A stretch of 64,000 nucleotides of DNA, taken from assembly GCA_018363345.1 (NCBI GenBank), contig JAGZNZ010000002.1, forward strand, positions 13,529 to 77,528, in the 5' to 3' direction. Shown piece after piece: positions 6,109 through 63,898 of this stretch. Positions within the stretch are counted from its first letter, which is position 1. Every line of letters begins with the position of its first letter. Origin of the DNA: Collinsella sp. (GTDB lineage: Bacteria > Actinomycetota > Coriobacteriia > Coriobacteriales > Coriobacteriaceae). The notes under the pieces were generated by a model that ran no database searches, was not told where the DNA came from, and saw only the letters and a program-made list of their open reading frames with translations. Position numbers and translations under genes: made by a program.

Positions 6109-6236
6109 GTAGCTCATTTGGGACGGGCTCTTTTAGCTGCTTTTGCAAGGAGTGTCCCCAGGTGCCGGCATAAAAGGAACGTCCCTAACTGCCGGGCTTG
6201 GGATACCATGGTGGCAGCCTAGCGAAAGGATGTTTC

Positions 6237-7325
6237 ATGGCACATGTCGATGACCAGCGTGTGGCGCGCGTGCTCGATTCGCTCGAGGCTCAGCACCCCG
6301 GCGCGCAGCTCCTCGTAAACGACCCGTGGTCGATCTATTACCTGACCGGCTTTTATGCCGATATGTTCGAGCGTTTTTGTGGCGTGCTGCTCACGCGCGG
6401 CAGCGAGCCGGTAATCCTGGTCAACGCCCTGCACCAGCTGCCCGAGTATGACAATGCCCGCGTTGCCTACCACACCGACACCGATGTCGTGGCCAACGCC
6501 ATCGCGAGTGAGATCGACCCGACCAAACCGCTCGGCATCGACACCGTCATGCGCTCCGGCTTTTTGATGCCGCTTATGGAGTGCCACGCCGCCAGCAAGT
6601 TTTTCCTGGGTGACTTTGCCGTCACCGCCGCGCGCACCCACAAGGATGCCACCGAGCAGGAGCTCATGCGCGTGTCCTCCGCCGCCAACGACGCCGTGAT
6701 GGCCGACGCCATCAAACTCGTCCACGAAGGTGTGACGGAGCGCGAAATTGCTGACCAGATGCTCGGCCTGTATCGCAAGCACAGCTGCGAGGGCTTTAGC
6801 TTTCCGCCGATCGTGAGCTTTGGCGCCAACGCCGGCGACCCGCATCACGAACCCGACGATACCGTGCTCAAGCATGGCGACGTGGTGCTATTCGACATTG
6901 GCGGACGCCATCGCAACTACTGCTCGGACATGACACGCACGTTCTTTTGGGGCGAGCCGGACGAGGAGACCGCGCACGTCTACGACATCGTGCGCCGCGC
7001 CAACGAGGCCGCCGAGGCTCAAATCGCACCGGGCGTGCGCATGTGCGACCTGGACCGTGCCGCGCGCGAAGTGATTGAGGACGCAGGCTATGGCAAATAC
7101 TTTACACATCGCCTGGGCCACTCAATCGGCCTGCAGGACCACGAGCCGGGCGATGTCTCGCTGGTCAACGAGCAGGTCGTAGAGCCAGGCATGACGTTCT
7201 CCATTGAACCGGGCATCTACCTCCCCGGTCGCACCGGCGTCCGCATCGAGGACTTGGCCCTAGTTACCGAGTCCGGCGTCGAGATTCTCAACGCCTACCC
7301 CCACGATCCGGTCCGCCTAGACTAG
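6237..7325 (+). CDS. M24-family Xaa-Pro aminopeptidase/dipeptidase.
   Basis: Pita-bread metal ligands are present (FDIGGRHRNYCSDMTRTF, HRLGHSIGLQDHE, EPGIY...IEDL). The ATG at 6237 has an AAAGGA RBS. Confidence 0.8.
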   Translation: MAHVDDQRVARVLDSLEAQHPGAQLLVNDPWSIYYLTGFYADMFERFCGVLLTRGSEPVILVNALHQLPEYDNARVAYHTDTDVVANAIASEIDPTKPLGIDTVMRSGFLMPLMECHAASKFFLGDFAVTAARTHKDATEQELMRVSSAANDAVMADAIKLVHEGVTEREIADQMLGLYRKHSCEGFSFPPIVSFGANAGDPHHEPDDTVLKHGDVVLFDIGGRHRNYCSDMTRTFFWGEPDEETAHVYDIVRRANEAAEAQIAPGVRMCDLDRAAREVIEDAGYGKYFTHRLGHSIGLQDHEPGDVSLVNEQVVEPGMTFSIEPGIYLPGRTGVRIEDLALVTESGVEILNAYPHDPVRLD

Positions 7326-7330
7326 CCAAT

Positions 7331-7357
7331 GTGCCAAAGGGACAGTCCCTTTGGCAC
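7331..7357. repeat. Perfect 13-bp-arm palindrome GTGCCAAAGGGAC-AG-GTCCCTTTGGCAC immediately after the peptidase stop codon.
   Basis: Read directly. The GGACTGT motif is shared with the REP-like hairpin family at 7597..7661. Confidence 0.5.
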
Positions 7358-7373
7358 ATCCCGTTAACGCAGT

Positions 7374-7533
7374 GCCACGAAAACGGGCCATCTACTACGT
7401 TTAACCCGCATGGGTCGACCATGCGGGTCTTTTTTTAAAAATGGCAAGCCCTTTACCTGCGGTTTTGATTTCGCAATTCTCGGTATGGTCGAGGGTTACC
7501 GGTCAAACGTAGTAAATAGGCCCATTTCGTGGC
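7374..7533. mobile_element. MITE-like element, copy 1: 160 bp bounded by ~32-bp terminal inverted repeats GCCACGAAAACGGGCCATCTACTACGTTTAAC / GTCAAACGTAGTAAATAGGCCCATTTCGTGGC.
   Basis: The terminal inverted repeats (TIRs) are about 85% identical. A second 160-bp copy with the same TIRs but a different interior lies at 45406..45565. No transposase is encoded. Confidence 0.6.
7405..7437 (+). terminator. Intrinsic terminator (CCCGCATGG-loop-CCATGCGGG followed by TCTTTTTTT) carried inside MITE copy 1, 80 nt downstream of the peptidase gene.
   Basis: 9-bp GC-rich stem followed by a T7 run, read directly. Confidence 0.5.
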
Positions 7534-7596
7534 GAGCAAGTCAACTCGAGGCGCAGGGCAGCCAAAAAAGCCCCGTCCCAAATTGACTGCTTTTGA

Positions 7597-7661
7597 GTTG
7601 CGGTGATATACGGACTGTTTGAGGCTTCTGACTTGTACAACAGTCCGTATATCACCGCAAC
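7597..7661. repeat. REP-like hairpin element with a 23-bp perfect stem (GTTGCGGTGATATACGGACTGTT ... AACAGTCCGTATATCACCGCAAC) and a 19-nt loop, in the convergent gap between the peptidase gene and folC.
   Basis: Same family as 63820..63888 and the partial copies at 45293..45360 and 45695..45719 (core AGTTGCGGTGAAATAG...CTATTTCACCGCAACT). Confidence 0.6.
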
Positions 7662-7676
7662 TGATGAGGGGATGGG

Positions 7677-9300: not shown

Positions 9301-11997
9301 TTACGAGAAGTCAGCAACCTGAGCAGTCAGCGCCGCCAGGATCTCCTTGAGCTCAGCTGCACGGTCCCTCTTCTTCTGGACCACCGCAGGCGCGGCCTTG
9401 GCAACAAAGCCCTCGTTAGCAAGGGTCTTCTCGCAGCCGGCGAGCTCCTTCTGCGCAGCGGCGATCTCCTTCTCCAGGCGCGCCTTCTCGGCCGAAAGAT
9501 CAACCTTGCCCTCGAGCACCACAAAGACCTCGACACCGCTGTCGACCACGGCGATGCTCGCAGCCGGCTTCTCGACGTCGGTACCCATGACCAGCGAAGC
9601 GGTGTTCGCCAGCGGCTCGATGGTCGAACGCAGGCTCTCGAGCTTCTCGGTGTCCTCGGCGCCGGCGCGCACGACCACGTCGAGCTCGGCCTTGGGGCTC
9701 AAGCGATAACGCGAACGCGTGGCGCGAGCGGCAGACACGACGGTGCGGCACAGCTCAAACGCGCGCTCGGCGTCCTCGTCAACATACTTGTCGTAGTCGG
9801 CGGGCTCGGGCCACTTGGCGATCATGAGCGCCTCGGCGCGGTTCACGTTGCCCTCGGCGTCCAGGTCAAGCACACTCGCCGGCATGTTGTCCCAGATCTC
9901 CTCGGTGACAAACGGCATGAGCGGATGCATCAGGCGAATGGAGGTGTCGAGCACAAAGATCAGGTTGCGCTGAGCCTGCAGACGGCCCTCGCCCTTCAGG
10001 CGGGCCTTGGTGACCTCGACGTACCAGTCGCAGACCTCGTTCCAGAAGAACTGCTGCACGCCGCGGGCCATGTCGCCAAAGGTGTACTGCTCGATACCCT
10101 CGGTGACCATCTTCACGGCCTTGGCCAGGCGGCTGAACATCCAAGCGTCGGCCGGCGTCTCCACGACGGGCTCGCCGGGCGTGTAGCCCTCCATGTTCAT
10201 GAGCAGGAAGCGGCTGGCGTTCCAGATCTTGGTCACAAACGACTTGGCCTGGTCGGTACGCGGGCTGTCGATAAGCTTCTTGGTCTTCTTATCGATGTTC
10301 GCGTCAAACTTGACGTCCTGGTTGTTGGTGCACAGCGTGAGCAGGTTATAGCGCATCGCGTCGGCGCCGTACATACCGATGAGGTCCATGGGGTCAACGC
10401 CGTTACCCTTGGACTTGGACATGCGGCTGCCGTCCTTGGCAAGGATCGTCGGGTAGATGACGACGTCCTTAAACGGTACCTCGTCCAAGAAGTACAACGA
10501 GCTCATGACCATGCGGGCGACCCACAACGCGATGATGTCGCGCGCGGTGACGAGCGCCGTCGTGGGGTGATGGCCCTCAAGCAGCTCCGGCTTTTGCGGC
10601 CAGCCCTGCGTGGCAAAGGTCCACAGCTGCGAGCTGAACCAGGTGTCCAGCACGTTCTCGTCCTGATGCACGTGATGGCCGCCGCACTTGGGGCACACGT
10701 CAGTGTCCTCGGTGAGGGCGTCCTCCCAGCCGCAGTCCTCGCAGTAGAACACAGGGATGCGGTGGCCCCACCACAGCTGGCGGCTGATGCACCAGTCCTT
10801 GAGGTTCTCCATCCAGGTGGTGTAGGTCTGCGTCCAGCGCGCGGGGTGGAAGGTGACCTTGCCGGAGTTAACGGCGTCGAGTGCCGGCCCCTTGAGCTTG
10901 TCGACGGCCACAAACCACTGCTCGGACAGCCACGGCTCCAGCGCGGAGTCGCAACGGTAGCAGTGCATGACGGAGTGGTCGAGCTCTTCGACGTGGTCGA
11001 GCAGGTCGTGCTCCTCGAACCACTTGATGACCGCCTCGCGGCACTCGTCGCGGTTCATGCCGGTGAACTCGCCATAGCCCTCGACGACCACCGCGTGCTC
11101 GTCGAAGATGTTGATCTGCGGCAGGTCGTGCGCCTGACCCATGGCGTAGTCGTTGGGGTCGTGGGCCGGGGTAACCTTGACAAAGCCGGAACCGAAGTTG
11201 GCGTCGACATGCCAATCCTCAAAGATGGGGATCTCGCGGTCGACGATGGGGAGCTTGACGGTCTTACCCACAAAGGCGGCCTTCTCGGGGTCCTTCGGGG
11301 AGACGGCAACGCCCGTGTCGCCGAGCATGGTCTCGGGGCGCGTGGTGGCGACGACGATGTAGTCCTGGCCGTTGACCGGCTCGGTCAGCGGGTAGCGCAG
11401 GTGCCACAGGTGGCCCTTCTCGTCCTTATACTCGGCCTCGTCGTCCGAGATGGCGGTGGTGCAGTTGGGGCACCAGTTGACGATACGCTTGCCACGGTAG
11501 ATCAGGCCGTCGTGGTACCAGTCGCAGAAGACCTTACGCACGGCCTGGGCGTAATCCTCGTCCATGGTGAAGCGCTCGTTGTCGAAGTCGACGGAGCAGC
11601 CCATGCGCTTGATCTGCTCGACGATGATGCCGCCGTACTCGTGGGTCCAGTCCCAGCAGGCGTCGACAAACTTGTCGCGACCGATCTCCAGGCGGCTGAT
11701 ACCCTCGCTCTTGAGCTTCTTGTCGACCTTGGTCTGCGTGGCGATACCGGCGTGATCGGTGCCCAGCACCCAGCGCGTGGACTTGCCGCGCATGCGGGCC
11801 ATACGGACGATGGCGTCCTGGATGGAGTCATCGGTGGCATGGCCCATGTGGAGCTTGCCAGTCACGTTGGGAGGCGGAATGGTGACGGTGCAGTCGCCCA
11901 CGCCCTCACGGCGCTTGTAGTAGCCGCCGTCAAGCCACTTCTGCAGGATCGCCGGCTCGTTGGTCGACGGATCGTAGTTCTTGGGCATTTCTTCCAT
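9301..11997 (-). CDS. valS: Valyl-tRNA synthetase.
   Basis: 898 aa. HMGH motif (PNVTGKLHMGHA), KMSKS motif (SRMSKSKGNGVDP), and a C-terminal coiled-coil typical of ValRS. Confidence 0.95.
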   Translation of the reverse strand: MEEMPKNYDPSTNEPAILQKWLDGGYYKRREGVGDCTVTIPPPNVTGKLHMGHATDDSIQDAIVRMARMRGKSTRWVLGTDHAGIATQTKVDKKLKSEGISRLEIGRDKFVDACWDWTHEYGGIIVEQIKRMGCSVDFDNERFTMDEDYAQAVRKVFCDWYHDGLIYRGKRIVNWCPNCTTAISDDEAEYKDEKGHLWHLRYPLTEPVNGQDYIVVATTRPETMLGDTGVAVSPKDPEKAAFVGKTVKLPIVDREIPIFEDWHVDANFGSGFVKVTPAHDPNDYAMGQAHDLPQINIFDEHAVVVEGYGEFTGMNRDECREAVIKWFEEHDLLDHVEELDHSVMHCYRCDSALEPWLSEQWFVAVDKLKGPALDAVNSGKVTFHPARWTQTYTTWMENLKDWCISRQLWWGHRIPVFYCEDCGWEDALTEDTDVCPKCGGHHVHQDENVLDTWFSSQLWTFATQGWPQKPELLEGHHPTTALVTARDIIALWVARMVMSSLYFLDEVPFKDVVIYPTILAKDGSRMSKSKGNGVDPMDLIGMYGADAMRYNLLTLCTNNQDVKFDANIDKKTKKLIDSPRTDQAKSFVTKIWNASRFLLMNMEGYTPGEPVVETPADAWMFSRLAKAVKMVTEGIEQYTFGDMARGVQQFFWNEVCDWYVEVTKARLKGEGRLQAQRNLIFVLDTSIRLMHPLMPFVTEEIWDNMPASVLDLDAEGNVNRAEALMIAKWPEPADYDKYVDEDAERAFELCRTVVSAARATRSRYRLSPKAELDVVVRAGAEDTEKLESLRSTIEPLANTASLVMGTDVEKPAASIAVVDSGVEVFVVLEGKVDLSAEKARLEKEIAAAQKELAGCEKTLANEGFVAKAAPAVVQKKRDRAAELKEILAALTAQVADFS

Positions 11998-22792: not shown

Positions 22793-22889
22793 TGGCGGGA
22801 ACGTATGTGAATCGAACACATCCAAGACGTTTTGCACGCCTCGCAACGGTTTTGAGGACCGCGGAGCCCACCGGAGCCCATCCGTTCCC
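22793..22889 (-). tRNA. selC: Candidate tRNA-Sec (selC), 97 nt, anticodon UCA.
   Basis: Hand-folded from the minus strand: GGGAACGG acceptor (7 bp plus a G.A mismatch), 6-bp D-stem with a CGGT loop, 5-bp anticodon stem with loop CCUCAAA, a ~7-bp long variable arm, 5-bp T-stem with loop TTCGATT, discriminator G, CCA. Sits between selB and the mobA/mocA gene, the classic selAB-selC context. C33 in place of U33 is atypical. Confidence 0.65.
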
Positions 22890-22925
22890 AAGTGCGCCGG
22901 TATTTTACCAAACCGAGCAGCCAAC

Positions 22926-44277: not shown

Positions 44278-44500
44278 TTTGGGCTGGTTAGGATTATTCT
44301 TGGGTAGCTATAAAGATAAGTGTATTACACGCGTACGCCAAGAAAGATTTCGCGCTCGTTTATGCAGGATGTAGTACGTTTGTAATGTTGATCGCGCTCA
44401 ATTACTCTAGTGCAATAAAGTAGTAGTTATAAGATTGGCTATTACTAGCCGAAACTGTATGTGACTATTCATACTGCACGCTCATTAAGGGAGGCCAGTG

Positions 44501-44824
44501 ATGTCATCGACTCAAAAACGAGCCATCCTGCAGGTGCGCATTCGCGAGGAAGACAAGCAGCATGCCGAGCGTCTCTACGACGCCATGGGCACATCGCTCG
44601 CCGAGGCTGTCCGTCTATTTGTCGCGCAGAGCATTTTGATGCGCAAGCTCCCCTTTCAGCCGGTCGCCGTGCGCTCAAAGGACGGCACCGCCGCCTATGG
44701 AACGCTCAAAGCATATGGGGACCCCAATCGCCGCTCCAAGGAGCGCAATGCCTGGATTGAATACCTTGCTACAGAAAGCGACGATTCGATTTTGGGTCCC
44801 GAGGAAGTAGATATCCATGAGTAG
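44501..44824 (+). CDS. RelB/DinJ-family type II antitoxin.
   Basis: N-terminal ribbon-helix-helix-like QVRIREEDKQHAERLYDAMGTSLAEAVRLFVAQSI. GGGAGG RBS; 8-nt overlap (ATGAGTAG) with the downstream toxin gene. Confidence 0.65.
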   Translation: MSSTQKRAILQVRIREEDKQHAERLYDAMGTSLAEAVRLFVAQSILMRKLPFQPVAVRSKDGTAAYGTLKAYGDPNRRSKERNAWIEYLATESDDSILGPEEVDIHE

Positions 44825-45272
44825 CACCATCATCGACGAGACCGTCATCCTGCGCTATCTGCTCGACGACGACGAGGTCCTGTCGCCGCGCGCCGCCAAG
44901 GTCATCGCCACGCGCACCGCTCGTGTCTACCCCGAGATCATCACGCGCGTCGTGGTCACGCTGCGCGACGTCTATAAGGTTCCACGCGTTGAGATTGCTG
45001 CGGCCATGAAAAGGCTGATCGATGACGTCATGGTCGACGAGCCCACCGTTGTCGCCCTTGCCGTCAAACTCTTTGGCAAGACCCATATGGACTTTACCGA
45101 CTGCCTCCTCGCAGCCCGAACAGCCATCTACAACGATGATGTCGTGAGCTTTGGCAAGCCCATCATCCAAGGCATGATCGATTACCGCCGCAAGCGCCAA
45201 ACCGCAGCCGAAGCCCGCAGCCGCAGCATCGACTCCACCATCGACAAGCTCCGCCACCGCCCCCGCAGCTAA
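44817..45272 (+). CDS. PIN-domain (VapC-like) toxin candidate.
   Basis: N-terminal IIDETVIL...DDD and later DFTDCLLAARTA resemble the PIN acidic motifs. Translationally coupled to the antitoxin. Confidence 0.5.
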   Translation: MSSTIIDETVILRYLLDDDEVLSPRAAKVIATRTARVYPEIITRVVVTLRDVYKVPRVEIAAAMKRLIDDVMVDEPTVVALAVKLFGKTHMDFTDCLLAARTAIYNDDVVSFGKPIIQGMIDYRRKRQTAAEARSRSIDSTIDKLRHRPRS

Positions 45273-45292
45273 CCCCATCCCCTCCTAAGTTG

Positions 45293-45360
45293 CGGTGAAA
45301 TAGTTCCTAGATTAGGCTTATTCGCGCTTTTCAGAAATTAATTAACCGCAACTTCCAGGT
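45293..45360. repeat. Partial or disrupted copy of the AGTTGCGGTGAAATAG REP-like hairpin (intact left arm, truncated right arm AACCGCAACTT).
   Basis: Starts 20 nt after the PIN gene stop. Same terminal motif CCTAAGTTGCGGTGAAATAG as at 63813. Confidence 0.5.
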
Positions 45361-45405
45361 TGGCCATCCGAAACTGGCAGCCTTGGACCGCGAATCCTAC
45401 TGTTC

Positions 45406-45565
45406 GCCACAAAATGGGCCTATCTACTACGTTTAACCGATTACCCTCGACCATACAGAAATCCGAAATATCAAAACAGCTGGTAGACGGCTTGCCGATT
45501 TTCCGAAACTGCTGCTATGGTCGTCCCCTGCGGGCCAAACGTAGTAGATGGGCCGCTTTCGTGGC
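45406..45565. mobile_element. MITE-like element, copy 2 (160 bp; TIRs GCCACAAAATGGGCCTATCTACTACGTTTAACC / GGCCAAACGTAGTAGATGGGCCGCTTTCGTGGC).
   Basis: Same TIR family and identical length as copy 1 (7374..7533), with an unrelated interior. Confidence 0.6.
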
Positions 45566-45694
45566 TCAACACCAGACCAGTCATTTTGGGGCAGGGCTTT
45601 TTTTGACCACATTTCCCAGCCGATCGCCAGAGCAGTCAAAAAGCCCGCTCCAAATTAGCTACCCCGGCCTTTAATGGGCCCGCAAAAGCCAAAA

Positions 45695-45719
45695 GACAGT
45701 CCGTATTTAACCGCAACTT
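45695..45719. repeat. Right-arm-only copy of the REP-like hairpin (ACAGTCCGTATTTAACCGCAACTT), preceded by CAAAAAGCCCGCTCCAAATTAGCT, which matches the sequence preceding copy 7597..7661.
   Basis: Read directly. Confidence 0.45.
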
Positions 45720-45732
45720 AGGTGGGCGCGGA

Positions 45733-63811: not shown

Positions 63812-63819
63812 CCCCACCT

Positions 63820-63888
63820 AAGTTGCGGTGAAATAGGGACTGTTTATGCAGCTAAAGCCGCAAAACAGTCCCTATTTCACCGCAACTT
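63820..63888. repeat. REP-like hairpin, full copy (24-bp stem AAGTTGCGGTGAAATAGGGACTGTT ... AACAGTCCCTATTTCACCGCAACTT, 19-nt loop), 9 nt after the lipid-kinase stop.
   Basis: Same family as 7597..7661, with the same CCTAAGTTGCGGTG junction as at 45286. Confidence 0.6.
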
Positions 63889-63898
63889 ATTGAGAAGG

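Follow-up and report, generated by a model that had tools for sequence, protein, structure and literature searches.

Palindromic 160-nucleotide intergenic repeats of Collinsella: an old, mostly vertically inherited family with a constrained core

Downstream of a peptidase gene in a Collinsella genome lies a short non-coding segment whose ends are inverted repeats of each other, and a second segment with matching ends lies farther along the same contig. A first-pass annotation of this 64,000-nucleotide stretch of DNA (hereafter the window) read the two as copies of a MITE-like element, mobile, non-autonomous and engaged in delivering terminators. Whether the segment is such a remnant of transposition with a terminator as its cargo, or belongs to a repeat family that its hosts keep for other reasons, is the question that the locus raises. 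The parts of the first segment (copy 1) and the gene that precedes it are the following, numbered from the first letter of the window.

6198-7325, + strand: M24 peptidase gene
7374..7533, + strand: copy 1, a palindromic element of arm type A, with the core strand on +
7404..7437, + strand: strong intrinsic-terminator-like hairpin of 10 bp (7 G-C) with T7, in the left interior, specific to the peptidase/folC site
7417..7422, + strand: GACCAT, 5' half of the conserved inner helix P2 (0.044 differences per site)
7444..7460, - strand: central hairpin GCAGGTAAAGGGCTTGC then CATTTTT, weakly terminator-like, facing folC
7456..7466, + strand: asymmetric conserved core CCTGCGGTTTT, 11 nt, comprising the 3' half of the central hairpin and the T-tract
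7485..7490, + strand: ATGGTC, 3' half of the inner helix P2 (0.044 differences per site)
7534..7564, + strand: right tail GAGCAAGTCAACTCGAGGCGCAGGGCAGCC, common to copy 2 and, loosely, to other sites

The ends of copy 1 fall exactly at 7374 and 7533, as first quoted, and delimit a unit of 160 nt. In both window copies the 32-nt ends are complementary at 26 of 32 positions, and the fold is far stronger than that of shuffled sequences (z = -7.5 for copy 1 and -6.7 for copy 2). Copy 1 is flanked by convergent units, the M24 peptidase gene on the + strand and a FolC-like gene of the Mur-ligase family on the - strand, and at this peptidase/folC site at least 12 other Collinsella genomes carry its orthologue. 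The hairpin and T7 noticed at the outset downstream of the peptidase gene are likewise real features of the sequence: a terminator scan places the hairpin at 7404-7428, followed by CTTTTTTT, beginning 79 nt past the peptidase stop codon at 7325. With the weaker hairpin read from 7460 to 7444 on the other strand, copy 1 bears terminator-like hairpins on both strands. A separate perfect hairpin, TGTGCCAAAGGGACAGTCCCTTTGGCACA, lies at 7330-7358, directly 3' of the peptidase stop; it has no T-run and is kept in the orthologous loci.

The second copy is present with the length and ends attributed to it, and has these parts.

45406..45565, - strand: copy 2, arm type A, inverted relative to copy 1
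45473..45483, - strand: core of copy 2, in the variant form CCAGCTGTTTT
45375..45405, - strand: right tail of copy 2, homologous to 7534-7564

Its interior had been taken as unrelated to that of copy 1, a view that held for one strand only. Copy 2 is the same element inverted: when it is reverse-complemented the two copies agree at 125 of 160 positions overall and at 68 of 96 interior positions (71%), as against 39 of 96 (41%) when the interiors are compared on the same strand. Nor does the likeness end at the 160-bp boundaries originally drawn, since it runs 31 nt past the right arm (7534-7564 vs 45375-45405; 191 nt in total at 75%). The repeat thus exceeds 160 nt and has asymmetric tails, and the right tail, being common to copy 2 and loosely to other sites, belongs to it. 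Copy 2 sits between convergent units, a RelB-like pair (+) and tRNA-Gly/tRNA-Pro (-), and the terminator scan found no terminator-like site in it. Upstream of copy 2, at 44498-45272, an ORF of 108 aa for the RelB-like antitoxin overlaps one of 151 aa without a Pfam match, and the two are a possible toxin-antitoxin pair.

The extent of the family was surveyed with the pattern TACTACGTTT-N(87-117)-AAACGTAGTARAT, which fixes 23 arm positions as invariant and was run on one genome per species. At least 120 loci matched, far more than the two copies of the window, and those listed are almost all from Collinsella genomes or MAGs, together with two that bear the label Coriobacteriaceae and some contigs that are unlabelled or probably mis-binned; one locus (L096) shares 99.2% identity with the window across 8 kb, which places the window in a Collinsella species. 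Unit length is 160 nt in 112 of the 121 copies among the matches listed, and 112 unique sequences give a nearly gapless alignment (A2) once they are oriented by the central motif CTACCTGCGG. A profile built from this alignment, a search biased toward copies with an intact core, recovered 57 more matches within the same loci and none in the window. Among the loci listed, other genomes hold more than 160 copies. Many of the profile matches lie 100-250 nt from a canonical copy and so form clusters of two or three, as at L088 (6358-6515, 6607-6766 and 6858-7010, flanked by convergent genes); 37 of the 124 clusters among the loci listed hold 2-3 elements. Clustering of the flanks of these loci gave about 23 site groups, an approximate figure because some flanks are built of other short repeats, which can confuse the definition of a site. 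Additional, non-ascertained clusters occur at about 9.7 per Mb, which corresponds to roughly 20-25 sites per genome, and the family marks about 20-30 gene 3' ends in each.

The copies fall into four arm types.

Arm type A: GCCACGAAAnnGGCCCATCTACTACGTTT
Arm type B: TATCAAAACTATGCCCATTTACTACGTTT
Arm type C: CAAAACTATGCCGGTTTACTACGATGAAT
Arm type D: CATTTCAAAACTATGCCGGaTTACGGGGC

All four have in common GCAAGCCGTCTACCTGCGGTTTT and (G)ACCAT...ATGGT. Copies other than type A have different arms that are again almost perfectly self-complementary, and their interior motifs are unchanged. Types C and D were detected through the interior, so that the conservation of their core partly reflects how they were found, whereas the type-A search pattern did not include the core. 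Allowing at most one mismatch, the core occurs 154 times inside elements and five times outside them in 0.93 Mb, the five being three elements cut by contig ends, one apparent chance match (L059) and one possible degenerate copy (L005).

The family does not correspond to any catalogued gene or RNA among the collections searched. Most copies have no open reading frame (even the best one is uninterrupted in just 42 of 103), and a small ORF or a type I toxin was rejected on this ground. An Rfam scan of the whole window at gathering thresholds returned tRNAs only and none at the elements, and scans by E-value of both window copies and of the three-element cluster returned generic hairpin and terminator matches far below threshold. 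The Collinsella-1 motif, listed as RF01700 (PMC2864571), has no match to the elements. No phage record among 50,697 matches the element, the annotated records that do match are C. aerofaciens replicons only and carry no annotation under it, and a search of the literature on repeats, MITEs and inverted repeats of Collinsella and Coriobacteriaceae found no description of the family. Three small PLSDB records of C. aerofaciens TSDC17.2-1.1 (NZ_OY725714.1, NZ_OY725716.1 and NZ_OY725722.1; 423-1785 bp) consist partly of type-D element sequence and are probably assembly fragments caused by the repeats; 'plasmid 6' of that strain, 900 kb long, has the look of a chromosome. A phage or plasmid origin of the family was accordingly rejected. 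Four IMG/VR contigs classed as viral (L121-L124) each carry an element copy and may be prophage host flanks or misclassified host DNA.

Aligned in this way, the unit proves to be a rod-like imperfect palindrome throughout rather than terminal inverted repeats around filler. In the arms, of about 30 bp, and in the inner helix GACCAT/ATGGTY, the partner of column i is column 162-i; the linkers vary in sequence and are constant in length; and the apex is a central hairpin, AAAACCGCAGG-loop-CCTGCGGTTTT, bordered by an A-tract and a T-tract. In the proposed structure 82.3% of cells are paired, compared with 32-42% when the partners are slid by 1-3 columns, and type A shows 197 double changes against 139 in shuffles, a modest covariation, since relatedness alone can yield such an excess. 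Folding energy is the same for both strands (-75.1 vs -75.5 kcal/mol), and each strand is the more stable one in half of the copies. Counts of G.U and A.C are 171/201 in the arms, 126/69 in P2 and 65/90 in the central hairpin, and this lack of an overall bias gives transcription of one particular strand no support. Within the apex, an A.C mismatch stands at columns 74-84 in 65 of 112 copies. The string CCTGCGGTT resembles the 3' strand of helix 45 of E. coli 16S rRNA, presumably by coincidence.

Among the loci listed, elements at one site are 86% identical to each other and elements at different sites 68%, and 95 of 100 elements have their nearest relative at the same site. Copies thus group by site and not by genome, as expected of elements that are old and mostly inherited vertically. 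The family had therefore already reached about 20-30 intergenic sites when the sampled Collinsella species split, and copies have been gained or lost only occasionally since then. Two sites that are empty in the window illustrate such turnover.

22797-22889, - strand: tRNA-Sec gene (Rfam score 64.6 bits)
22913..22925, unstranded: empty site beside tRNA-Sec; L017, L009 and L007 have a type-A element there with tails and other repeat boxes (alignment A3)
6109..6197, unstranded: empty site, the 89-nt spacer upstream of the peptidase gene; filled in other loci (alignment A4)

At the second of these, L050, L078, L026, L075 and L081 carry a type-D element together with an GTTGCGGTG hairpin. At the first, the filled L017 differs from the empty site of the window (22913-22925) by about 183 inserted nt, and no direct repeat flanks the insertion. 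Target-site duplications, which a transposition model had led one to look for, are likewise absent from the flanks of the roughly 23 site groups, where no common duplication was found and the palindrome just extends by at least 1 bp. Solitary arms of types A-D, or an IS with such ends, were found nowhere outside the elements in 0.93 Mb of sampled Collinsella DNA. An annotated transposase gene 3 kb from one copy was considered as belonging to a partner IS and rejected, its ends being unrelated. The GC skew of the window carries too much noise for the elements to be related to replication direction. Of the suggestion that this is a mobile non-autonomous element, then, one part stands, in that the unit is short, non-coding, multi-copy, bounded by inverted ends and present in some genomes where it is absent from others; little recent movement is seen, and copies group by site.

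The vertically inherited copies also permit a comparison of rates. Among 12 orthologues at the peptidase/folC site, pairwise differences per site are 0.214 at the 4-fold synonymous sites of the peptidase gene and 0.032 at its codon positions 1+2. Within the element they are 0.205 in the linkers (positions 30-43, 50-63, 94-111 and 124-131), 0.083 in the outer arms, 0.044 in GACCAT/ATGGTY (P2) and 0.030 in the core CCTGCGGTTTT, and the ranking is unchanged when all sites are pooled. The linkers thus evolve at the synonymous rate and are neutral in sequence, though fixed in length. Arms, inner helix and core are under purifying selection in the vertically inherited copies, which speaks for a function that benefits the host. 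Constraint on the apex is one-sided: the 5' partner of the core (positions 68-76) differs at 0.129 per site within sites and at 0.41 between sites, and a plain hairpin-terminator model fails to account for this.

The placement of the elements relative to genes bears on what that role might be. A stricter gene caller placed 26 of 60 element clusters between convergent genes and the other 34 between tandem genes; no cluster had divergent neighbours. These 60 contexts are non-independent across orthologous sites. Every element so placed is 3' of at least one gene. Relative to adjacent genes the elements run both ways (7 same, 16 opposite). Under the simple criteria of the scan tool, terminator-like sites occur on the core strand of 74 of 158 unique copies and on the opposite strand of 39 of 158, compared with about 14 and about 5 in shuffled sets. 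The family consensus has its own central terminator-like hairpin, found in about half of copies. The left-interior hairpin of copy 1 has the G+C-rich stem and T-run, 3' of a gene, by which intrinsic terminators are predicted, and it had been proposed that the element delivered this terminator as cargo. The distribution speaks for a different origin: the strong hairpin is confined to the peptidase/folC site, where 11 of 15 orthologues have it and the other 4 keep the family-typical CCATACCCGYGTTTTCGC, so that it evolved in place through few substitutions and was not delivered.

Taken together, the evidence leans, if modestly, toward an old family of palindromic intergenic repeats, non-autonomous, specific to Collinsella and of the ERIC, Correia/NEMIS or REPIN kind, that serves as a cis-acting module at gene 3' ends and is partly functional. 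To the observed anatomy, distribution, age and constraint this account adds predicted transcription and termination. Lying 3' of genes, the element would be transcribed within gene 3' ends; its RNA would fold into a long rod, and the central hairpin with its U-tract would terminate transcription or stabilise the 3' end, in many cases for either direction. In the left interior of the peptidase/folC copy, a few substitutions would have produced an extra, strong terminator for the peptidase gene. Counting against the termination part are the facts that only about half of the copies have a terminator-like site by the simple criteria, that copy 2 has no such site and that the 5' partner of the core is poorly kept. 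The modest covariation, the lack of an overall strand bias and the mixed orientation relative to genes weigh against the account as well.

A bolder proposal, which we put forward tentatively and rate as unlikely, is that of a genus-wide functional module, as opposed to a selfish repeat in decay, in which the 11-nt core and the short inner helix, held at fixed spacing at the tip of a long interchangeable stem, are read sequence-specifically by a putative factor. That reader may be an HUH-type enzyme acting on hairpin DNA, a protein that binds DNA, or a factor for RNA 3' ends or RNA processing.

Recognition might instead take place at the level of DNA, the core CCTGCGGTTTT and the arms being putative protein binding or cleavage sites in DNA that is duplex or folded as a single-stranded hairpin. 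The protein could be a REP-associated HUH tyrosine transposase, a recombinase of another kind or a nucleoid protein, and the element would be REPIN-like or a domesticated site of fixed spacing; we consider both the general idea and these candidates doubtful. Strands that fold equally and show no overall G.U bias suit such a role, yet the excess of G.U in P2 on the core strand hints at RNA. The core sequence is kept on one side only, length is constant despite about 50% divergence of the linkers, orientation relative to genes is mixed, and target-site duplications are absent as they are from HUH-mobilised elements; however, no candidate enzyme was found, tblastn with IS200 TnpA, a weak query, having returned nothing below E = 1 in 0.93 Mb, and copies per genome number only tens. 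GTAG is the cleavage-associated tetranucleotide of E. coli REPs, and the core loop as well as arm types A-C contain CTAC/GTAG strings, which offers a lead only; type-D arms have no GTAG.

The classical alternative, with which the annotation began, is a TIR-type MITE: an IS that has lost its interior, is moved in trans by a DDE transposase acting on the 32-bp TIRs and carries the terminator as cargo. Small size, inverted ends, lack of coding capacity and multiple copies are what such an element would have, as is polymorphism of presence and absence, and within type A the arms are better kept than the linkers. Across subtypes, however, it is the arms that vary and the interior core that is common. 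Set also against a MITE are the missing target-site duplications at the filled/empty pair and at 23 site flanks, the lack of solitary arms or a matching IS in 0.93 Mb, the clustering of copies by site rather than by genome and the origin in situ of the copy-1 terminator. Moreover, constraint on the core and P2 in vertically inherited copies is not expected of a dead MITE, and the reading is improbable.

At odds with much of the evidence is a multi-copy family of independently transcribed genes for structured small RNAs, which we regard as quite improbable. Such genes would explain the strong folding (z about -7), the constant length, the purifying selection on the core, the G.U excess of P2 on the core strand, and an architecture in which the apical motif is kept while the closing stem varies and still pairs, arm subtypes staying complementary. 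Yet flanks differ by site, so that there is no conserved promoter, and copy 1 has no promoter-like site; no Rfam family, Collinsella-1 included, matches; both strands are equally stable; and covariation is modest given relatedness. A near-perfect duplex of about 30 bp is, further, unusual for a stable bacterial sRNA. Finally, a chance likeness or the placement of two copies inside a larger segmental duplication, for which only the 31 nt of likeness past one end could be adduced, is refuted by shuffles, family scan and flank comparison, with negligible probability left to it: the arm pattern has 4 matches in the window and zero expected by chance (0 in 100 shuffles), more than 160 copies exist in other genomes, and the flanks past the 191 nt are unrelated apart from other short repeats.

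By anatomy, the preferred family of old 3'-end repeats is closest to Correia/NEMIS, ERIC and REP/REPIN elements. Correia/NEMIS elements of Neisseria measure about 100-160 bp, have inverted ends of several subtypes around an asymmetric conserved central IHF site, and occur in tens to hundreds of intergenic copies kept at orthologous sites; they are co-transcribed with neighbouring genes and can act as terminators, and we know of no transposase for them. The Collinsella unit, also of about 160 nt, likewise has inverted-end subtypes and an asymmetric central site. Whereas Correia elements duplicate a TA target, the Collinsella family has no duplication of TA or of any other target, and its central motif TCTACCTGCGGTTTT is unlike the IHF consensus WATCAANNNNTTR. 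It differs further in host phylum (Actinomycetota) and in its lower copy number of about 10 sites per Mb; sequence likeness is not expected.

ERIC/IRU elements are imperfect palindromes of about 127 nt in transcribed intergenic regions of Enterobacteria, old, vertically inherited and better kept than the surrounding intergenic DNA, and their mobility has, to our knowledge, never been demonstrated. The Collinsella unit resembles them in being wholly an imperfect palindrome, intergenic, old and vertically inherited. By description it is set apart through its length (160 vs about 127 nt), its consensus and its taxon, as well as by its several arm subtypes and one-sided conserved core.

REPs measure 20-40 nt, and REPINs, about 100 nt long, are made from two of them. 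Shared with the REP/BIME and REPIN-RAYT systems are palindromes 3' of genes, often convergent ones, clusters with conserved linker boxes, a lack of target duplication, and long-lived vertical inheritance. The Collinsella unit is, in contrast, a single 160-nt palindrome with a conserved apex and not a doublet of short REPs; the string CGTAGTA/TACTACG is present in its arm types A-C and absent from type D. No RAYT-like gene accompanies it in the 0.93 Mb covered by the IS200 TnpA query, a weak test, and copy number is far below that of typical REPIN populations. Classical IS-derived bacterial MITEs, such as those of the IS630 or IS5 families, are likewise short, non-coding and multi-copy, with TIRs and insertion polymorphism, but the Collinsella family has no target-site duplication, no partner IS (0.93 Mb) and no sign of recent bursts, and across its subtypes the interior core is better kept than the ends. 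Bidirectional intrinsic terminators resemble its apex, a hairpin between an A-tract and a T-tract, and its setting between convergent or tandem genes; ordinary terminators, unlike it, are neither set in a 160-nt palindrome with 30-bp arms nor members of a repeat family with a conserved loop and a one-sided stem half. Integron attC sites were rejected: the strings GTTTAAC/GTTAAAC stand at the inner, not the outer, ends of the arms, and the elements are solitary or in short clusters, in both orientations, with housekeeping genes as neighbours.

Collinsella is a prevalent genus of the human gut, and the family is apparently undescribed. Its repeats probably break assemblies, to go by the tiny contigs of C. 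aerofaciens TSDC17.2-1.1 that consist partly of element pieces, and its sites of presence and absence could serve as markers for typing strains or species. The copy-1 site is a clean case of a repeat reshaped in place into a strong terminator. More broadly, neutral linkers set beside a constrained core, helix and arms make the family a tractable case for the persistence of old palindromic repeats, and it speaks to the same question that ERIC and Correia elements pose, namely what keeps them alive. Were the tentative functional-module reading true, it would represent a new REPIN-like partnership of host and element, or a new 3'-end control element, in Coriobacteriia.

Several other repeats share the window. 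A second family of hairpins, AAGTTGCGGTGAaATAgGGACTGTT...AACAGTCCcTATtTCACCGCAACTT, lies at 7596-7662, 45289-45356, 45696-45726 and 63813-63889; these often adjoin the 160-nt elements, here and at other Collinsella loci, and their presence varies by genome. Short flank boxes, AGCYAAAAAAGCCCCGTCCCAAAWWGACTG and CCAAAATGATCCGTTTTCCTCCGTCCCC..GGGATCAG, form a BIME-like mosaic and lie as follows.

7562-7590: short flank box
45582-45610, - strand: short flank box
45634-45663: short flank box
about 6124-6155, - strand: short flank box
L001, L006 and L088: short flank boxes in other loci

The boxes have strings in common with the type-D arm and, on that likeness, may be solo type-D arms. At 2373-2716 there is a separate array of four palindromic units about 80 nt apart, each of the form GTCTCAATCTGTAACA...(about 22 nt)...TGTTACAGATCGAGAC. 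Intergenic inverted repeats, one a perfect 25-nt pair and one a 27-nt pair at 89%, lie at 12018-12042/12106-12130 and 9174-9200/9262-9288, on both sides of the gene at 9301-11997 (-), which from its translation alone we take to be valS.
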